Source: a virus
Length of the DNA: 64,000 nucleotides
Direction: 5' to 3' (one strand)
UHGV virus genome: UHGV-0179803
How positions within the stretch are numbered: position 1 is the first letter of the stretch; every line of letters starts with the position of its first letter. The notes under the pieces are model-generated. The model worked only from the letters and a program-made list of their open reading frames with translations. It was not told the DNA's origin and did no database searches. Both the position numbers and the translations under genes were made by a program. Positions 30,937 to 59,578 of the stretch are shown one piece after another.

Positions 30937-31406
30937 TTTACGAAAGTGACTATATCTGGAAGATTGGCCCTGCTGCACAAGATCTGATTGAAGTGCCACG
31001 GGAAACGCTACAAAAAGCTGCTTTTAAGTTCCGTGATCTTGCAGTGATTGGTAACAGGATCCTGAAATATCTTAAAAACAAACGTTATGTTGAAGAGAAG
31101 TTCTTCGGATTGATCAAAAAAGAAACTACAGTATGGGAACACTACTTGAAAGAGTCTCAGAGCTTCTATGCTGGGCTGGGCGTAGCTCAGATGGTGATGC
31201 ATGACGGTTACATCAACCCAACTGAAATGCGTTGCCTACGCTACGCTATAAGCGATTACCCTGGGTTCCTGAAGTATCATTTAACTGGCACAGCCTCTGA
31301 AAAGATTTATCTGACAGAGGAACATTTCGAACAACTGAATAAAATTTTAAACATAGACTTGACATTAGTCTCAACAGAGTATACAATTGGGATTCGTGTC
31401 GAGTAA
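30933..31406 (+). CDS. hypothetical protein
   Basis: 157 aa; ATGA overlap. Confidence 0.5.
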   Translation: MIYESDYIWKIGPAAQDLIEVPRETLQKAAFKFRDLAVIGNRILKYLKNKRYVEEKFFGLIKKETTVWEHYLKESQSFYAGLGVAQMVMHDGYINPTEMRCLRYAISDYPGFLKYHLTGTASEKIYLTEEHFEQLNKILNIDLTLVSTEYTIGIRVE

Positions 31407-31411
31407 TAACA

Positions 31412-31437
31412 GCCCTGCCCGAAAGGGCGGGGTTTTT
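31412..31437 (+). terminator. intrinsic terminator
   Basis: GCCCTGCCC-GAAA-GGGCGGGG hairpin followed by TTTTTGTGTTT. Confidence 0.65.
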
Positions 31438-31458
31438 GTGTTTGGAGGGCTAAATAGT

Positions 31459-32193
31459 ATGAAGCAAGGTGTAGTGTGGGCTTTATTCAATGGCTCCGAT
31501 ATTGCTGTCAAACCCTGGGCTGATGCAGGGTATTTGTGCTTCTGCTTCAATGCAGAAGGGGCAGATCACGGGAGCTATGCAGAGGTAGTAGAAGAACATC
31601 CCAACATTAAGTACATAGATTACTGGATTGACCCGTGGTTCCCACAAGAAACCTTGGGGATGTATCCTGCACCAGATTTCATCCTGTCGTTTCCACCATG
31701 TACCCACTTAGCGGTATCTGGAGCAGCACATTTCAAGAAAAAATTACAAAAAGATCCGTTGATTCAGGTCAATGCTGTAAAAGATGCACGTATTGCAGAA
31801 ACATTGGGTAACATGTATAATTGTCCGTGGCATGTGGAGAACCCTGTTGGGGTTATGTCTAATATGTGGCGTAAACCAGACTACAAGTTCCATCCGTCTG
31901 AGTATGGTGGCTATCTGCCGGAAGATGACCAGAACCCGTGGTTCCCTGACCTGATTAAGCCCAGAGATGCTTATCCGAAGCTAACCTGTGGATGGTTTGG
32001 GAATGGTTTTGTTGTCCCTGAGAAACGACCTGTGCCGCAGATTTGTGATGTAAATGGGTATTCTTTCCAACATACCAAACTGGGAGGAAAATCTCCTCGT
32101 ACCAAAATGATCAGAAGCCTGACACCTCGTGGTTGGGCATTAGCCGTGTTTGAAGCCAACGAACCCGTTGTAAGGAGCAAACTCAATGGTTGA
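31459..32193 (+). CDS. C5-cytosine methyltransferase-like protein (minimal, no obvious target-recognition domain)
   Basis: 244 aa from ATG after GGAGGG; motif I-like LFNGS, motif IV SFPPCTHLAVSGAA (Pro-Cys), motif VI HVENPVG (ENV), in the order and spacing expected for C5-MTases. Confidence 0.5.
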   Translation: MKQGVVWALFNGSDIAVKPWADAGYLCFCFNAEGADHGSYAEVVEEHPNIKYIDYWIDPWFPQETLGMYPAPDFILSFPPCTHLAVSGAAHFKKKLQKDPLIQVNAVKDARIAETLGNMYNCPWHVENPVGVMSNMWRKPDYKFHPSEYGGYLPEDDQNPWFPDLIKPRDAYPKLTCGWFGNGFVVPEKRPVPQICDVNGYSFQHTKLGGKSPRTKMIRSLTPRGWALAVFEANEPVVRSKLNG

Positions 32194-49288: not shown

Positions 49289-49611
49289 ATGAAGTATGGG
49301 AAATCTGTGTAGACGTAGCAGGAATCACGCTTATAGGTGCTCTGGTTATTGCTCTGGCGCTGGTAGGATACAAGATGGCACTTCTGCCTTTCCTGGAAGC
49401 ATTCAGCCTGTGTCATTGCTGGCGTAGAGCATATGGACCACAACCTGTAAAAGACTGGTTCACTTTGTACCGTATTGCACTATCTTACACGTTTGATCAT
49501 TCACGCTTAAACTGCATTGAAAGCTATCATGCTGATGGTTGGTGGTGGGTAGGATTATTCAGATGGGAGGTGACAGAGGTAACTCCGAAACGAATGCTTA
49601 AGAAAAATTGA
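49285..49611 (+). CDS. membrane protein
   Basis: 108 aa; hydrophobic N-terminal helix (VAGITLIGALVIALALVGY); ATGA overlap. Confidence 0.5.
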   Translation: MNEVWEICVDVAGITLIGALVIALALVGYKMALLPFLEAFSLCHCWRRAYGPQPVKDWFTLYRIALSYTFDHSRLNCIESYHADGWWWVGLFRWEVTEVTPKRMLKKN

Positions 49612-49939
49612 TTTTAGAATTATAAAAGTTTTAGATGACAAGGGGAAATCTGTAATAGATTTTCCCTTATTTATCAGATATTTGCAGATATTTGAAAATC
49701 ATTAGAAACTTAGGTAATTAGGAGCGTACGAAAATGGATTTTTTAAAAGCATAAGCAATCATTTAGCAAATTAGCCAAATAGATTTTAGCCTATTGCTAT
49801 TGTGTATGCATGTATTTGCATATGCCTTGCACATATCCCCACACACCTCTTCCCACATTCCCACACAGTTCTCGGTTGACCCGCCAATCTCCCCTCCACA
49901 ACTCTCCCAGTAATTTCCTTAAGTACTCGATCTGTTTTT

Positions 49940-50047
49940 CAAAATCGAAATCGGATTCTGAAAATCTCGACAGCTTTTCTCCTCGGTTCTCGATAGGTTT
50001 TTTATTTTCGATTTTGGATTCTGGATCTCGGTCTGGTTCTGGCTAGG
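49940..50047. repeat. direct repeats of a GG(A/T)TTCTG-type unit
   Basis: tcggattctg, cggttctcg, tggattctgg, cggtctgg, tggttctgg within about 110 bp of non-coding DNA. Confidence 0.5.
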
Positions 50048-50185
50048 CCTGCGCCTGAGGAACGAAAGCACTTTTTTATTTTTGAAAGTGGATTTTGAAT
50101 TTCTATATAGAAAAAATTTACCCCCTACCATTTTTGGTAGATAGTCACGGTACGTAATTAGCCTGCTAACTAAATTTTAGATAGT

Positions 50186-50380
50186 TTCATGAGTGATTAT
50201 CACCGTTACTATAAATTGCCGTAACTATAAATCACCGTGCGTTACTATTTTAATTTCACCATGCAACTATAAATCACGGGCCGTTATTATTTATATAGAA
50301 AACTATTACTAACCGTGCGTTATTACCTCAATTTGCTTAGGTTACTATTAATCACCGTAAGTAACTATTTTTTAAATGAT
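50186..50380. repeat. iteron array, ~9 units at ~20-bp period (candidate origin or regulator-binding array)
   Basis: Units such as GTAACTATAAATCACCGTG, GTTACTATTTTAATTTCACCATG, GCAACTATAAATCACGGG, GTTACTATTAATCACCGTAAG spaced 15-22 bp. Confidence 0.65.
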
Positions 50381-50399
50381 AATCATTCTCAAAATATAT

Positions 50400-50700
50400 T
50401 GCGTGCATCCCCGGTGATTGTCTCCCGGCCCCTGGTGCCCCGGCTTGATTATATAATAACAGATCCGGCCCCCATGTCAACAGCTTTTTTAGAAAAATAT
50501 TAGTTACAACATCCTGGCGCCACCTGGCAGGGCCATCATGACCATGATCCGGTCCGGCGCTTGCGCCCTGGTCCATCCTCCGCACATTAGTTACAGCATT
50601 CCAACGACCGATCCCCGATAGTCTGCAACCTGGCGGGGCCGCCTGGTCCACTGGACCGCCTCCCCTGGTCCGGTGGGGAGTCCGGCTTGCAATTCAAAAT
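50400..50700. other. GC-rich island of palindromes rich in CCTGG
   Basis: GGTCCACTGGACC palindrome, CTCCCC...GGGGAG and GGCGCTTGCGCC inverted repeats, about seven CCTGG sites in about 250 bp, inside otherwise AT-rich non-coding DNA. Confidence 0.5.
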
Positions 50701-50732
50701 GTGATCTGTGTCAACCTTTCACCATGTAGCTA

Positions 50733-50760
50733 TTGATCAGGTTACGGCCTAGTGTATTCT
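50733..50760 (+). promoter_or_regulatory. sigma70-like promoter of first micro-gene
   Basis: TTGATC-16 nt-TATTCT. Confidence 0.45.
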
Positions 50761-50828
50761 ATAGGTGAAGGGAAACAAAGGGGAAACGGAAAGCAAAACA
50801 CCAGGCCGCAAGGCAGGAGGAAAATAAA

Positions 50829-51021: not shown

Positions 51022-51216
51022 GTGTTAGCTTATAATCTTCCAGGCCGTCGCCGTACGGTTGCCGACCAGGTAACGGCAAAGGCAGACGTAACAATCAACA
51101 ACGGGCAGGGCCTTTACAAGTTTAAACGGGGGAACAGCTATACGATCCAGTTTCTTAACCGTTGTGCTTTAACACCTGGTCAGATCAACCATTGGTTTAA
51201 AGCTAAAAAATTTTAA
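51022..51216 (+). CDS. micro-gene product (start uncertain)
   Basis: GTG after AGGGGGG; ORF-track frame 50974..51216. Confidence 0.35.
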   Translation: MLAYNLPGRRRTVADQVTAKADVTINNGQGLYKFKRGNSYTIQFLNRCALTPGQINHWFKAKKF

Positions 51217-51703: not shown

Positions 51704-51744
51704 GCTGCCTTTTAGATGGCCCCCTGGTGGGGCCATTGATAAAG
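51704..51744 (+). repeat. conserved intergenic hairpin element, copy a
   Basis: GCTGCCTTTTAGATGGCCCCCTGGTGGGGCCATTGATAAAG directly after a stop codon. Confidence 0.5.
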
Positions 51745-51780
51745 GTAACTTGGGGCAACAATAACCGAGAGAAAGAAAAT

Positions 51781-52215
51781 ATGAAACGTTTACCACGCTG
51801 GATCCGCTTTATTAATAAACTTGCCGCAGATGAAAAAATCCAGGCTATGCATAAAGATAACCGCGAACGCCGTGCTGCCTTACGAGATTATCGCCGCATG
51901 TTGGCAAAGTTAGCCAATAAAAATGGCGTTCTTAAACCGTTCCGCAAAGTGATCCACCTGGTCGCTATGGGAGCGCCTAAGGTGGCAAACGTTCCAAACG
52001 TCCATAAGATTGATGACCGCGACGTTGTAAGAGATATTGATAAAGATTTTTCTCCGAAGGCCATCAATCAGCGGATCAACAGCTGCAAAAATAAGAAAGA
52101 TCTTGATAATTTGTTAGATAGCCTCGACGCTTTAGGGTGTGATTATGATTTCTTAGATGACAAGATTAATAAAAAATACCGCGAATTGGCTGGTTATCGC
52201 GTCAACCGGATTTAA
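51781..52215 (+). CDS. hypothetical basic protein
   Basis: 144 aa from ATG (MKRLPRW) after GAGAGAAAG. Confidence 0.5.
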   Translation: MKRLPRWIRFINKLAADEKIQAMHKDNRERRAALRDYRRMLAKLANKNGVLKPFRKVIHLVAMGAPKVANVPNVHKIDDRDVVRDIDKDFSPKAINQRINSCKNKKDLDNLLDSLDALGCDYDFLDDKINKKYRELAGYRVNRI

Positions 52216-52428
52216 CATATCAGAATAGTTGGCCCTGGTGGATCCGATCCGTGCACGGTCCAGGGTATGCCCGAAAACCTCCCCCATTACGCCGCTACGC
52301 CTGTTTTGAAGGTGTGGCGGTGTAGTTGCACCTCTTTGCAAAACACCTCGCCATAATACTTATTTGATGCCTTATTTTCGATACGCTCAAATAATGACCA
52401 ATCAATCGCCCCCACCATGATTTTTTTC

Positions 52429-52456
52429 TTGCAATCCCCCAATGTATGAATACAAT
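52429..52456 (+). promoter_or_regulatory. sigma70-like promoter
   Basis: TTGCAA-16 nt-TACAAT. Confidence 0.5.
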
Positions 52457-52502
52457 AACAATTGAAGGCAGTATTAACAAAAACACAAGAAGGGGAAACA
52501 AA

Positions 52503-52673
52503 ATGGATAAAATCTATTACGTTGTTTATCGCGGCCTTAATGTTGCCTGGTACGACAATTTGGCTGAGGCAATGGAAGAGGCGCACGACCGTTACGACCT
52601 GGGGCGTAACCGCCTTGAAGTGGTGGATAGCGACGGCGTGATCTATTGGTGTAGTGAGGATCTGGAATACTGA
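52503..52673 (+). CDS. micro-gene product (56 aa)
   Basis: ATG (MDKIYYVVY) after AAGGGGAAAC. Confidence 0.45.
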   Translation: MDKIYYVVYRGLNVAWYDNLAEAMEEAHDRYDLGRNRLEVVDSDGVIYWCSEDLEY

Positions 52674-52684
52674 AAAAAAAATAG

Positions 52685-52715
52685 TTGACACGACCGTTTG
52701 AAAGTGTAGTATATA
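52685..52715 (+). promoter_or_regulatory. sigma70 promoter
   Basis: TTGACA then AGTATA/TATATA at 16-19 nt. Confidence 0.6.
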
Positions 52716-52768
52716 AACCGAAGGGGAAAGAAATTTCCCAGAGGTAAAAAACAAAGAGGATAAAAATC

Positions 52769-53044
52769 ATGGCTATCATCGAAAAAGTAAACGTTCCAGC
52801 CACTTATAATAAAGGTTATAACGGTTGGAAAAATTACAATCAGTGGAACGTTGCACTGTGGATCAATAACGACGAAAGTTTATACTTCTTTGCCCTGGGC
52901 TTGATTAATGAGTGTGGCAATAAAGACGCGGCAGCTGATTTGATGGTTTACCGCTTGAAAGAAGAGGGGATCACTCATACGCCTGATGGGGTGCCTTACA
53001 ATAAAACTAACATCCGCGCCGCTATGGTCGGAATGCCGCACTGA
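52769..53044 (+). CDS. hypothetical protein
   Basis: 91 aa; AAGAGGA upstream. Confidence 0.55.
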   Translation: MAIIEKVNVPATYNKGYNGWKNYNQWNVALWINNDESLYFFALGLINECGNKDAAADLMVYRLKEEGITHTPDGVPYNKTNIRAAMVGMPH

Positions 53045-53120
53045 TAGCCGCCTTACCCTGGGGCCGTGGCAGCGCCCCATGAATAAGGTTACTACCCCCA
53101 CAATAACAGGAGGTAACATT

Positions 53121-53231
53121 ATGAACATTATCGCGGCAATCATTGTAGGCTATGCCCTCTTTTTGCTGGGCTTGCACCTGGCGGCAGTTATCAAAGGCCT
53201 GATCGATTTCTTTAAAAAAGATGAAAAATAG
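53121..53231 (+). CDS. small membrane peptide (36 aa)
   Basis: MNIIAAIIVGYALFLLGLHLAAVIKGLIDFFKKDEK; ATG after AGGAGGTAACATT. Confidence 0.4.
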   Translation: MNIIAAIIVGYALFLLGLHLAAVIKGLIDFFKKDEK

Positions 53232-53233
53232 TG

Positions 53234-53261
53234 TTGACAGGTGAGAGAAAATAAATATACT
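53234..53261 (+). promoter_or_regulatory. sigma70 promoter
   Basis: TTGACA-16 nt-TATACT followed by GAAAGCAGTAAAC box. Confidence 0.6.
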
Positions 53262-53311
53262 TAACCATGAAAGCAGTAAACGAGATTAATAAAACACAGG
53301 AGAAAAAGATC

Positions 53312-53722
53312 ATGAAAACTACTTTCCGTAATGCAAATGGTTTAACTGCATTCGCTTTAGCTTGTGGATATGTTCAAATGGTAGAGGGGCGGGATCGTGA
53401 AATGGTGGATCTGTTTAAAGCCCACGGTTGCTACCATGTTCGCGCTTTTAATGCTGATGGCGAGCGGCAAGCATGGTTTAGTGTGCCATCTTTAACTGAT
53501 GCCCGTCGCCATTGGAAAGAACTGGTAAAACTGATTTTCGGTGCACGCATTGCACAAGTGAAACGCTGCAAACGTTACGAAGTGCGCCACGTCCTGGACC
53601 TGAGAGGGGAGGCAGTTTACCAGGTTATCTATCGCTACGATGGGGAGTCTCGCCACGTCGGCTACTGTGAAAACGTGGACGCGGCATGGATGATTGCACA
53701 CCGCGACTATGTAAGCCTATAG
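53312..53722 (+). CDS. hypothetical protein
   Basis: 136 aa from ATG (MKTTFRNANG) after CAGGAGAAAAAG. Confidence 0.55.
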   Translation: MKTTFRNANGLTAFALACGYVQMVEGRDREMVDLFKAHGCYHVRAFNADGERQAWFSVPSLTDARRHWKELVKLIFGARIAQVKRCKRYEVRHVLDLRGEAVYQVIYRYDGESRHVGYCENVDAAWMIAHRDYVSL

Positions 53723-53806
53723 GTTATTTTTCGGTGGCCTGGGTATTGACACCGGGCCATCTATAAAGTAACCTAAAGATCCACACAACGAAGGGGGGGA
53801 ACAATC

Positions 53807-53899
53807 ATGAAAAACTATTCTCACTATTTGATCCGTCGTGATGTTATGATTATGGCCCTGGGCTACCTGGTTATGTTTGCTTTTCGTGTAATGCTGTAA
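53807..53899 (+). CDS. small membrane peptide (30 aa)
   Basis: MKNYSHYLIRRDVMIMALGYLVMFAFRVML; GAAGGGGGGG upstream. Confidence 0.3.
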   Translation: MKNYSHYLIRRDVMIMALGYLVMFAFRVML

Positions 53900-53917
53900 A
53901 ATAAATTAAAAAATTAG

Positions 53918-53946
53918 TTGACACAGTAGCAAAAATAAGTAAACTT
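53918..53946 (+). promoter_or_regulatory. sigma70 promoter
   Basis: TTGACA-17 nt-AAACTT followed by GAAAGAAGTAATTAG box. Confidence 0.5.
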
Positions 53947-53990
53947 AAAACTGAAAGAAGTAATTAGTAAACCACAAAGAGGAAAACATC

Positions 53991-54350
53991 ATGAAACGCA
54001 TCAATAAGGCTATGGCTAACGCAATCCGTGCTTATGTAGTTGACAGCTTAAACTTTGACGACATGGAACACGACAACGACGTTGAGGAACTGAAAGCACG
54101 CTTTGAAGCTGAGCATTTTGACGGCTATTATATCCGTCGCTTTAACGGCAACCGTGTAAAAGCAATGGCCGACTGGTTAGCAGGACTGCCGAGCGGTGTA
54201 GACATTGACTTCTGTAATGATGACATTTTAAACCGCTTGCGTGAGTTCGGAATCATTGACGAAAAAACTAAAGAAGACACTAAAGATCGCTACATTGACG
54301 AATGGTTTGAACTGATGGCGCGGTTTTATGTGGAACTAGCATACAAATAA
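53991..54350 (+). CDS. hypothetical protein
   Basis: 119 aa; AGAGGAAAAC upstream. Confidence 0.55.
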   Translation: MKRINKAMANAIRAYVVDSLNFDDMEHDNDVEELKARFEAEHFDGYYIRRFNGNRVKAMADWLAGLPSGVDIDFCNDDILNRLREFGIIDEKTKEDTKDRYIDEWFELMARFYVELAYK

Positions 54351-54388
54351 AATAGCTTGCTTTTAGATGGCCTCGAAAAAAAAAATAG

Positions 54389-54417
54389 TTGACACGGGGC
54401 CATCGATAAAGTAAACT
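54389..54417 (+). promoter_or_regulatory. sigma70 promoter embedded in conserved hairpin element
   Basis: TTGACA-17 nt-TAAACT; the spacer is the GGGGCCATCGATAAAG arm of the recurrent hairpin element. Confidence 0.55.
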
Positions 54418-59311: not shown

Positions 59312-59578
59312 ATGAAAATGGTAGACGTTAAAGGCATCAAGAACGTTAAAATGCAAAAAAATACTCCCGCAAACGTTCTTAAAAAAGCCCTGAGCATCCT
59401 AGAAGCACACAACGCAAAAACGGTGCATCCTGTTAAATTAAATTGCGGTTATGGCTATAAATACAATATTAATAAAGACTGGAGGCTGTTAAACCGTGAT
59501 GGCGAATTTAAAGATTGGTTAATTGTTGAGCACTTGGAGTATAATCGTCTGGTTGGCGTAAAAGGCGCTCATAAATAA
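59312..59578 (+). CDS. hypothetical protein
   Basis: 88 aa; AGAGG upstream. Confidence 0.5.
   Translation: MKMVDVKGIKNVKMQKNTPANVLKKALSILEAHNAKTVHPVKLNCGYGYKYNINKDWRLLNRDGEFKDWLIVEHLEYNRLVGVKGAHK

Follow-up and report, generated by a model that had tools for sequence, protein, structure and literature searches.

What function, if any, does a tandem array of some nine ~20-bp repeats serve in the genome of a large gut phage? The array lies in the last 64,000 bases (hereafter the window) of a 139,523-bp phage contig assembled from a gut metagenome (ENA ERZ1034815 NODE_8), and two readings had been proposed for it from the letters alone: iterons bound by an initiator at an origin of replication, or an array bound cooperatively by a phage regulator. 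The question has some practical weight, as rV5-like phages (Vequintavirinae), for which neither the replication origin nor the cis-acting control regions are known, figure widely in collections for therapy and biocontrol. The array is of a known general kind, iteron- or operator-like, found here in an uncharacterised phage lineage. The reading we prefer, with a probability of roughly 45%, is that it forms an accessory, expandable cluster of putative binding sites for one sequence-specific DNA-binding protein.

By sequence comparison, the window phage is a divergent myophage relative of Vequintavirus (rV5-like), an E. coli phage. Nucleotide identity to GenBank phages is limited to patches of 71-84%, and the proteins encoded in the window are mostly 35-75% identical to those of phage Bas52. 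The gene order is also that of Bas52, running from the tail fibres to a minus-strand early block with tRNAs, then to the replication genes, and finally to ~35 small early genes, which have strong sigma-70 promoters of the AAAAAATAGTTGACAC type. Adjoining the tRNA cluster is a gene without a Bas52 counterpart (12490-14073, minus strand), the 527-aa coiled-coil product of which has a membrane anchor domain resembling that of YadA (Pfam E=4.7e-18) and falls under 'adhesin' in PHROG; an anchor of the trimeric autotransporter type is unusual for a phage. A ParE-like protein of 88 aa is encoded at 59312-59578.

The array occupies positions 50205 to 50376 of the plus strand and has a GC content of 31%. 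Nine sub-units could be mapped, starting at 50207, 50223, 50243, 50265, 50285, 50301, 50321, 50343, and 50363, which bears out the original prediction of about nine ~20-bp units at 50186-50380. Their spacing (16, 20, 22, 20, 16, 20, 22, and 20 bp) is that of a diverged duplication of a 78-bp block plus one extra unit. The full consensus is found only in the even-numbered units (50223, 50265, 50301, and 50343), while the odd-numbered units keep little beyond a GTWAYTAT core; the true repeat is therefore a super-unit of ~40 bp, four of which, spaced 42, 36, and 42 bp apart and preceded by one weak leading unit, make up the array. A periodicity of two helical turns had also been proposed; it holds for the sub-units, which are 16-22 bp apart, but only approximately, and the distances between the strong sites imply that these are not all on one helix face. 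From 18 copies, drawn from the window and from related genomes, we derived the super-unit consensus AACTATWAATCACnGTGnGTWACTAT(TT), in which two WACTAT hexamers 20 bp apart are arranged around an imperfect palindrome, TWAATCAC-n-GTGnGTWA. The first super-unit (50223-50248; AACTATAAATCACCGTGCGTTACTAT) matches the consensus without mismatches, the second (50265-50290) has three, and the fourth (50343-50368) two; the third (50301-50326), with four, is both the most degenerate and, among relatives, the most variable. All four are on the plus strand.

The array is real and statistically solid, far above what chance would produce. When the 26-mer consensus was searched across the 64 kb with up to six mismatches, there were six matches, all on the plus strand: the four super-units of the array and two more at 63685 and 63705. 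The 17-mer put forward in the original prediction likewise gives six matches with up to three mismatches (five within the array and one at 63705), compared with 1.19 expected, and none of 100 shuffled sequences reached six. The shorter string ACTATWAAT is present six times, again always on the plus strand, with four occurrences in the array followed by 62069 and 63706. The motif is restricted to the two large non-coding regions of the window and keeps a single orientation throughout this genome. In IMG/VR contig 159287, a 140.6-kb relative, the strict motif is found at the same two loci only.

At the second locus, where further copies had been noticed at 63688-63744, there is one complete super-unit (63705-63730, plus strand; AACTATTAATCACTGTGAGTAACTAC), preceded by a partial 20-bp unit (63685-63704, plus strand) and followed by a degenerate tail that extends to ~63744. 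The complete sister super-unit is conserved in three phages (the window phage, L008 at 12439, and L023 at 11734 on the minus strand), which are identical over it save for the central n and one pyrimidine (Y). The partial unit is a 20-bp tandem duplication (TRF period 20) present in this genome only; relatives carry GTAAACAGCC at that position. A single copy had further been placed near 62066, and the motif is indeed present there (62068-62078, plus strand; AACTATAAATC) and conserved in L008, but as an isolated half-site without the CACnGTG part.

The sister site lies within a 2.5-kb intergenic region, from 61870 to ~64344, where plus- and minus-strand gene blocks converge. In phage Bas54, an intergenic region of ~2 kb between the oppositely transcribed genes bas54_0134 and bas54_0135 has been reported to be free of transposon insertions, and we infer from gene order that it is the counterpart of this region. 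About 230 bp upstream of the sister site are three perfect DnaA boxes (TGTGGATAA), arranged as a direct repeat within 40 bp on the minus strand (63440-63479). The trio is specific to this lineage, being found also in L008 (12175-12214) and L023 and absent from the classical-type L006-L014; a 33%-GC tract and several other repeat families in the region are likewise confined to the lineage. We considered and rejected a positional homologue of the sister site in the classical-type L006, as the alignment places the sister units in a ~95-nt segment that L006 lacks.

The main array sits in an ORF-free stretch of ~1.2 kb (49612-50828), the flanks of which are conserved genus-wide while the array itself is not. 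To the left of the array, this stretch contains a conserved block of 140 bp, a C-rich tract, three 38-nt repeats, and the flank with a proto-site; to the right are a Fur-like palindrome, a GC-rich element, a leftward promoter, and a zone of CCWGG-dense repeats. The three 38-nt repeats (49923-50097, plus strand) lie at spacings of 63 and 74 bp and are conserved in classical relatives, and the first contains GATCTGTTTTTCA, which resembles the oriC 13-mer; this AT-rich repeat module is 100-260 bp to the left of the array. The proto-site (50145-50157, plus strand; TCACGGTACGTAA) lies in the invariant left flank and shares the core TCACnGTRnGTWA with the array units. It is conserved in classical Vequintavirus, which has no array (50145 in the window, 3042 in L001, 653 in L031). 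The 140-bp block (49608-49748) carries CAGATATTTG twice and is the best-conserved DNA of the ORF-free stretch relative to classical Vequintavirus, providing the sole megablast-level match (83-84%) to these phages within 49-52 kb.

Abutting the last unit of the array is a palindrome resembling a Fur box (50372-50390, plus strand; TTAAATGATAATCATTCTC). It agrees with the Fur consensus at 15 of 19 positions, and is the only match in the window at that level or better, with 0.43 expected by chance; paired with 50191-50202, it makes up an inverted repeat on either side of the array. In classical Vequintavirus the box reaches 17 of 19 positions (GATAATGATAATCGTTCTC) and is present in two copies (L001 3105 and 3241), each followed by the same GC-rich element; a further example is at 2451 in L004. 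This conservation suggests an iron/Fur input into the control region of a lytic phage. The array units themselves do not qualify as Fur boxes: none reaches 13 of 19 positions to GATAATGATAATCATTATC, where at least 13-14 of 19 was taken as the criterion, and the adjacent palindrome is the only element that does.

The conserved GC-rich element (50409-50444; CCCCGGTGATTGTCTCCCGGCCCCTGGTGCCCCGGC), present in two copies in classical relatives, separates the Fur-like box from a predicted strong leftward sigma-70 promoter (50453-50480, minus strand; TTGACA-16-TGnTATTAT, 11 of 12 positions) that has an A-rich upstream element. This promoter points against the flanking genes and through the Fur-like box into the array, which is 65-240 nt downstream. 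It is conserved in L004, L005, and L033, and a weaker form is present in L001. There is also a weak rightward promoter-like site, TTTAAA-18-TATATT, that encloses the Fur-like box, and the array ends at its -35. On the minus strand the strong units read TATAGT (listed in the promoter scan, for example, as 50253>50224). No DnaA boxes are found beside the main array, the perfect boxes in the window being those near the sister site, and inspection by eye revealed no IHF consensus.

Two further features of this control region deserve mention in their own right. In some relatives (L004 2717-3405, L005 ~2725, L056/L058/L060), a gene for an HNH endonuclease (HNH_2, 229 aa) is inserted between the GC-rich repeat zone and a 58-aa gene. 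The window phage lacks it, so that the control region is polymorphic for the presence of a homing-type gene. In addition, the density of CCWGG, the Dcm site, peaks at 50500-50700, where it reaches 8 per 500 bp compared with a window mean of 1.2; these sites lie within ACCTGGCRGGGCC repeats. The phage encodes a Dcm-like methyltransferase (31387-32193) that is 79% identical to that of Bas52.

Comparison with relatives revealed a copy-number series. Five direct super-units are present in L047-L049 and L052, and four in the window, L005, and L033; L044 and L060 have three direct and one inverted, L004 and L040 one direct and one inverted, and L041 and L061 none. The inverted super-units (L004, L040, L044, L060) keep the same hexamers, and only their centre varies. 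In classical Vequintavirus (SYGMH1, Bas52, and one IMG/VR contig), which has a single proto-site, 33 nt take the place of the array between flank and Fur-like box, and in CR3, Av-05, and KP13-16 there is no comparable non-coding region upstream of the homologue of the 133-aa gene. L041 and L061 represent a near-identical, array-less relative from two independent assemblies, with a contig that ends before the position of the sister site. Their junction, gctAACTA|TTTTTTTTTTAAATGATAATC, falls exactly between two AACTA cores; the two independent assemblies share it, and an assembly collapse would require longer and less diverged repeats than these. A clean loss, together with copy numbers from 0 to 5 and some inverted copies, indicates that the array is dispensable, under some conditions at least, and is remodelled by unit-to-unit recombination, these states being read from assemblies and not from phenotypes. 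As far as the compared sequences go, the array is lineage-specific and unstable.

The ancestry of the array can be approached through the proto-site. In the classical-type contig 3300010279_000001, the two non-coding regions share an identical stretch of 13 nt, AATTGTCACGGTA (L031; L006 11669), and Bas52 has a near-copy of it at 92318. Given the 13-bp core in the proto-site and this 13-nt stretch common to both regions, the shared site looks ancestral and the array looks like its amplification. Within the array, we asked how variation is distributed in the three genomes that have the same 9-unit layout: with the core defined post hoc, after inspection of the data, 3 of 72 columns in the GTWACTAT core are variable versus 20 of 96 in the linkers (Fisher p=0.0025). 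Units of the same genome are 65-85% alike overall, yet all nine keep at least six of the eight core positions. Drifted units with retained cores are the pattern expected from selection on the cores, and not from uniform neutral decay. The immediate flanks of the array are, however, more conserved than the cores (3 of 106 columns variable), so that part of the contrast may come from relaxation of the linkers within a region that is under constraint as a whole.

What might bind these sites? Pfam and PHROGs searches of ~30 neighbouring or lineage-specific proteins encoded in the 64 kb identified no Rep, initiator, or DNA-binding (HTH) domain. The one protein that we infer to be a candidate cognate binder is a basic helical protein of 144 aa (51781-52215, plus strand), a member of phrog_13245. 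This family, with members of 144 or 230 aa, is the only one found alongside the array in all covered genomes, although the number of independent gains or losses behind the association is very small and this very protein was the query with which several of the array loci were found. It is present in the window phage, L004/L032, L005, L040, L047-L052, and L060, whereas neither the array-less L041/L061 nor Bas52 has it. The AF2 model of the 144-aa protein is poor (pLDDT 55), Foldseek returned no match for it, and no fold could be assigned; PDB sequence searches were empty. As a binder of the array, the phrog_13245 protein is therefore best regarded as a lead, not a finding. A neighbouring protein of 64 aa (51022-51216) that appeared HTH-like by eye was rejected, as its AF2 model (pLDDT 77) is an SH3-like barrel with two helices and has no significant PDB match. 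The neighbouring genes for 136-aa and 119-aa proteins do not track the array, since they are absent from L060, which carries it. Both belong to a ~2.7-kb block of small early genes (51727-54400, encoding proteins of 144 aa and 56 aa, a DUF7249 protein, and proteins of 136 aa and 119 aa), the whole of which is missing from L041/L061 and from Bas52.

According to the reading we prefer, the functional unit would be a site of ~26 bp, AACTAT-WAATCAC-n-GTGnGT-WACTAT. From one ancestral site, for which the proto-site at 50145 is the candidate, the array would have grown by replication slippage or by unit-to-unit recombination, in a conserved control region, with the AT-rich repeat module to one side of it and a strong leftward promoter of the early type to the other. 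Several neighbouring sites would be expected to raise the local occupancy of the factor. This could modulate the leftward transcript that runs through the sites; alternatively, the factor could be titrated by the array, or bridged to its single site at 63705. Since viable-looking relatives have between 0 and 5 copies, the role of the array would be to tune a function that can proceed without it. The proposal that a phage regulator binds the array cooperatively sits more comfortably with these observations than an origin core does, as would an incA-like cluster, even though our searches yielded no binder.

A more specific version is conceivable, in which the array, the sister site, and the phrog_13245 gene constitute a lineage-specific module of three parts, the protein binding the 26-bp sites, bridging the two regions, and thereby looping or handcuffing the segment between them. 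We consider this elaboration improbable. The two non-coding regions do exactly bracket a ~10.6-kb cluster (51.2-61.8 kb) in which small early genes are served by strong sigma-70 promoters. If the module exists, bridging could time the shut-off of early genes, or control initiation or packaging at an essential intergenic region, and would represent control of the iteron-handcuffing type in a virulent phage.

One rival is the first of the two options in the original prediction, namely that these are true origin iterons: an initiator of the phage or the host would bind the array and open the adjacent AT-rich module, and the sister locus would be a second origin or cis-acting replication region. 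Consistent with this, the sub-units are direct, asymmetric repeats 16-22 bp apart, within or close to the 17-22 bp and two-turn spacing of origin iterons, although the full consensus recurs only every 36-42 bp, and the motif is common to two loci. The AT-rich repeat module with its 13-mer-like sequence (GATCTnTTnTT-like) lies 100-260 bp leftward, the sister site has three perfect DnaA boxes and a 33%-GC stretch in its vicinity, and the counterpart of its region has been reported as essential in Bas54. What speaks against the array as a required origin core is natural deletion: it is missing from the near-identical relative, in both assemblies, and from all classical Vequintavirus, which keep the surrounding module. 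Where the array is retained, the number and orientation of its copies are free to vary; the non-coding region as a whole is lacking in other genera of the subfamily; the main array has no adjoining DnaA boxes; and no Rep- or initiator-like gene, which an origin iteron system would be expected to include, was detected among ~30 proteins in the 64 kb of the 139.5-kb genome. On these grounds we judge the origin interpretation of the array itself improbable; it retains some weight, given that the module around the array has an origin-like appearance and that no origin is known for rV5-like phages.

That the array might have no role at all, being the neutral slippage product of one functional site duplicated in an AT-rich tract and gained and lost at random, is unlikely in our judgement, while accounting simply for several observations: 0-5 copies in close relatives, junctions exactly at repeated AACTA cores, a fresh 20-bp duplication at the sister site of this genome only, and the empty searches for a binder. 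Random gain and loss does not sit well with a 9-unit layout that predates the split of three genomes differing by ~8-10%, with units that are 65-85% identical and have kept their cores, with inverted copies that retain the same hexamers, or with the composite 26-bp motif having been maintained, in three phages, at a second locus 13 kb from the array. This last point bears equally on the proposal that the array is a purely local transcription element, unlinked to the sister locus. Such an element could be an operator or roadblock array, or a set of sigma-70-dependent pause sites (TATAGT, non-template strand), acting on the leftward transcript, or else upstream activating or curved DNA for the weak rightward promoter. 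The geometry is suggestive: the array begins ~65 nt after the point, near 50446, where transcription from the strong, conserved leftward promoter is predicted to start, its end falls on the -35 of the rightward promoter-like site enclosing the Fur-like box, and each strong unit has TATAGT on the minus strand. But the promoters are unchanged in relatives without the array, and the conserved, identical site at 63705, with no comparable promoter context, is left unexplained, making a strictly local role doubtful.

Other interpretations were rejected outright. In some units the core CTATAAAT resembles the T4-type late promoter TATAAATA, but unlike such promoters the copies are tandem and limited to the two non-coding regions, where all six occurrences of ACTATWAAT are found, with none before the tail-fibre genes; the dismissal of late promoters in the original prediction was sound, and the motif does not form a promoter class. 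The late motif of rV5 has been given as TggTAaAAtA (PMC3606486). A structured RNA or known RNA family is not indicated, as fold z-scores relative to shuffled sequences are -1.41 and -1.29 and there is no Rfam match within the array at the gathering threshold or at E<=1. A 39-aa ORF (50193-50312) does not represent coding sequence, since it cannot survive unit lengths of 16, 20, and 22 bp and the indels between relatives. The units abut without unique spacers, unlike a CRISPR-like array, and blastn against PLSDB plasmids and 5,426 genomes of E. coli gave no match at E<=1, so that iterons borrowed from a known plasmid or from the host are rejected as well. An informal comparison of the unit with the motifs for IHF, DnaA, CRP, Fis, OmpR, ArcA, NarL, MarA, SlmA, and MatP gave no convincing resemblance.

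The architecture invites comparison with several known systems, in which we claim likeness of layout only and not membership of a family. Plasmid iteron clusters with auxiliary copies include P1 oriR/incA, F incB/incC, R6K, and RK2. The phage array resembles these in its tandem, asymmetric direct repeats ~20 bp apart, in the presence of the motif at a second locus, and in the AT-rich repeats nearby. It differs from them in that no Rep gene is located beside the repeats or detected in the window, in its true period of ~40 bp with irregular sub-spacing of 16-22 bp, and in its residence in a virulent 139.5-kb myophage. The resemblance extends to auxiliary clusters such as P1 incA: the array is dispensable with a variable copy number (0, 1+1, 3+1, 4, or 5 super-units), and the same motif is found at a second important locus (the super-unit at 63705, in a region with an insertion-free Bas54 counterpart).

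In SPP1 (oriL/oriR, bound by G38P) and P4 (ori/crr, bound by the alpha protein), short repeats shared by two loci that are kilobases apart are recognised by a single DNA-binding replication protein. The window phage has a comparable arrangement in a phage genome, with putative binding, but a homologue of G38P or of P4 alpha was not detected, its main array is dispensable, and the sister locus is a single site, with no matching array. Centromere or operator arrays bound by ParB or RHH proteins form a third group, including F sopC, with 12 repeats of 43 bp, the omega heptads (WATCACW), and R1 parC. As in arrays of the F sopC type, the tandem repeats here are ~40 bp long, each has a short imperfect palindrome, and both orientations are tolerated; the hexamer AATCAC is also reminiscent of the omega heptad, a similarity over 6-7 bp that could be due to chance. 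Unlike in those systems, no ParA, ParB, or RHH gene was detected, and a lytic phage has no need of partition.

These comparisons provide a candidate protein-binding site of 26 bp common to a region recently reported as essential and a second conserved non-coding region, a natural allelic series with 0 to 5 copies, and one candidate gene. Were the array a product of neutral expansion only, it would still mark a slippage hot-spot and caution against calling every ~20-bp repeat an origin.

The large intergenic region around the sister site holds several additional repeats. At one and the same place in it, different lineages carry different tandem arrays: GGGGAAGTATA four times in the window (63089-63131), GTGGAAACAGTTGCAGG three times in L023 (~12350-12420, minus strand), and about eight GCATGTAAACnnTTAA units of 16-17 bp in L006 (12080-12240). 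Judged by sequence, this looks like a second, lineage-specific protein-DNA recognition system. A dense repeat cluster at 62486-62930 includes perfect 17-nt inverted repeats, GACATAATAACGCTGAG and CTCAGCGTTATTATGTC (62536/62635), and more copies of TAACGCTGAG, and is bracketed by two 24-nt direct repeats, TATGCAACGATAACATGGCGC (62502 and 62903); TATTCCGCGTAGCGTCATG is present three times, at 62148, 62829, and 63415. The source contig stops inside this region (position 64000 of the window), just short of a run of 14 A (L045 10703-10740), while scaffold_9 of ERZ28630675, which is 100% identical to the window phage across the 10.7 kb compared, runs on beyond the window end. In KPP-1, a relative within the Vequintavirinae, direct terminal repeats of 514 bp have been reported (PMC9862379), and the physical ends of the genome may be located in the large intergenic region.
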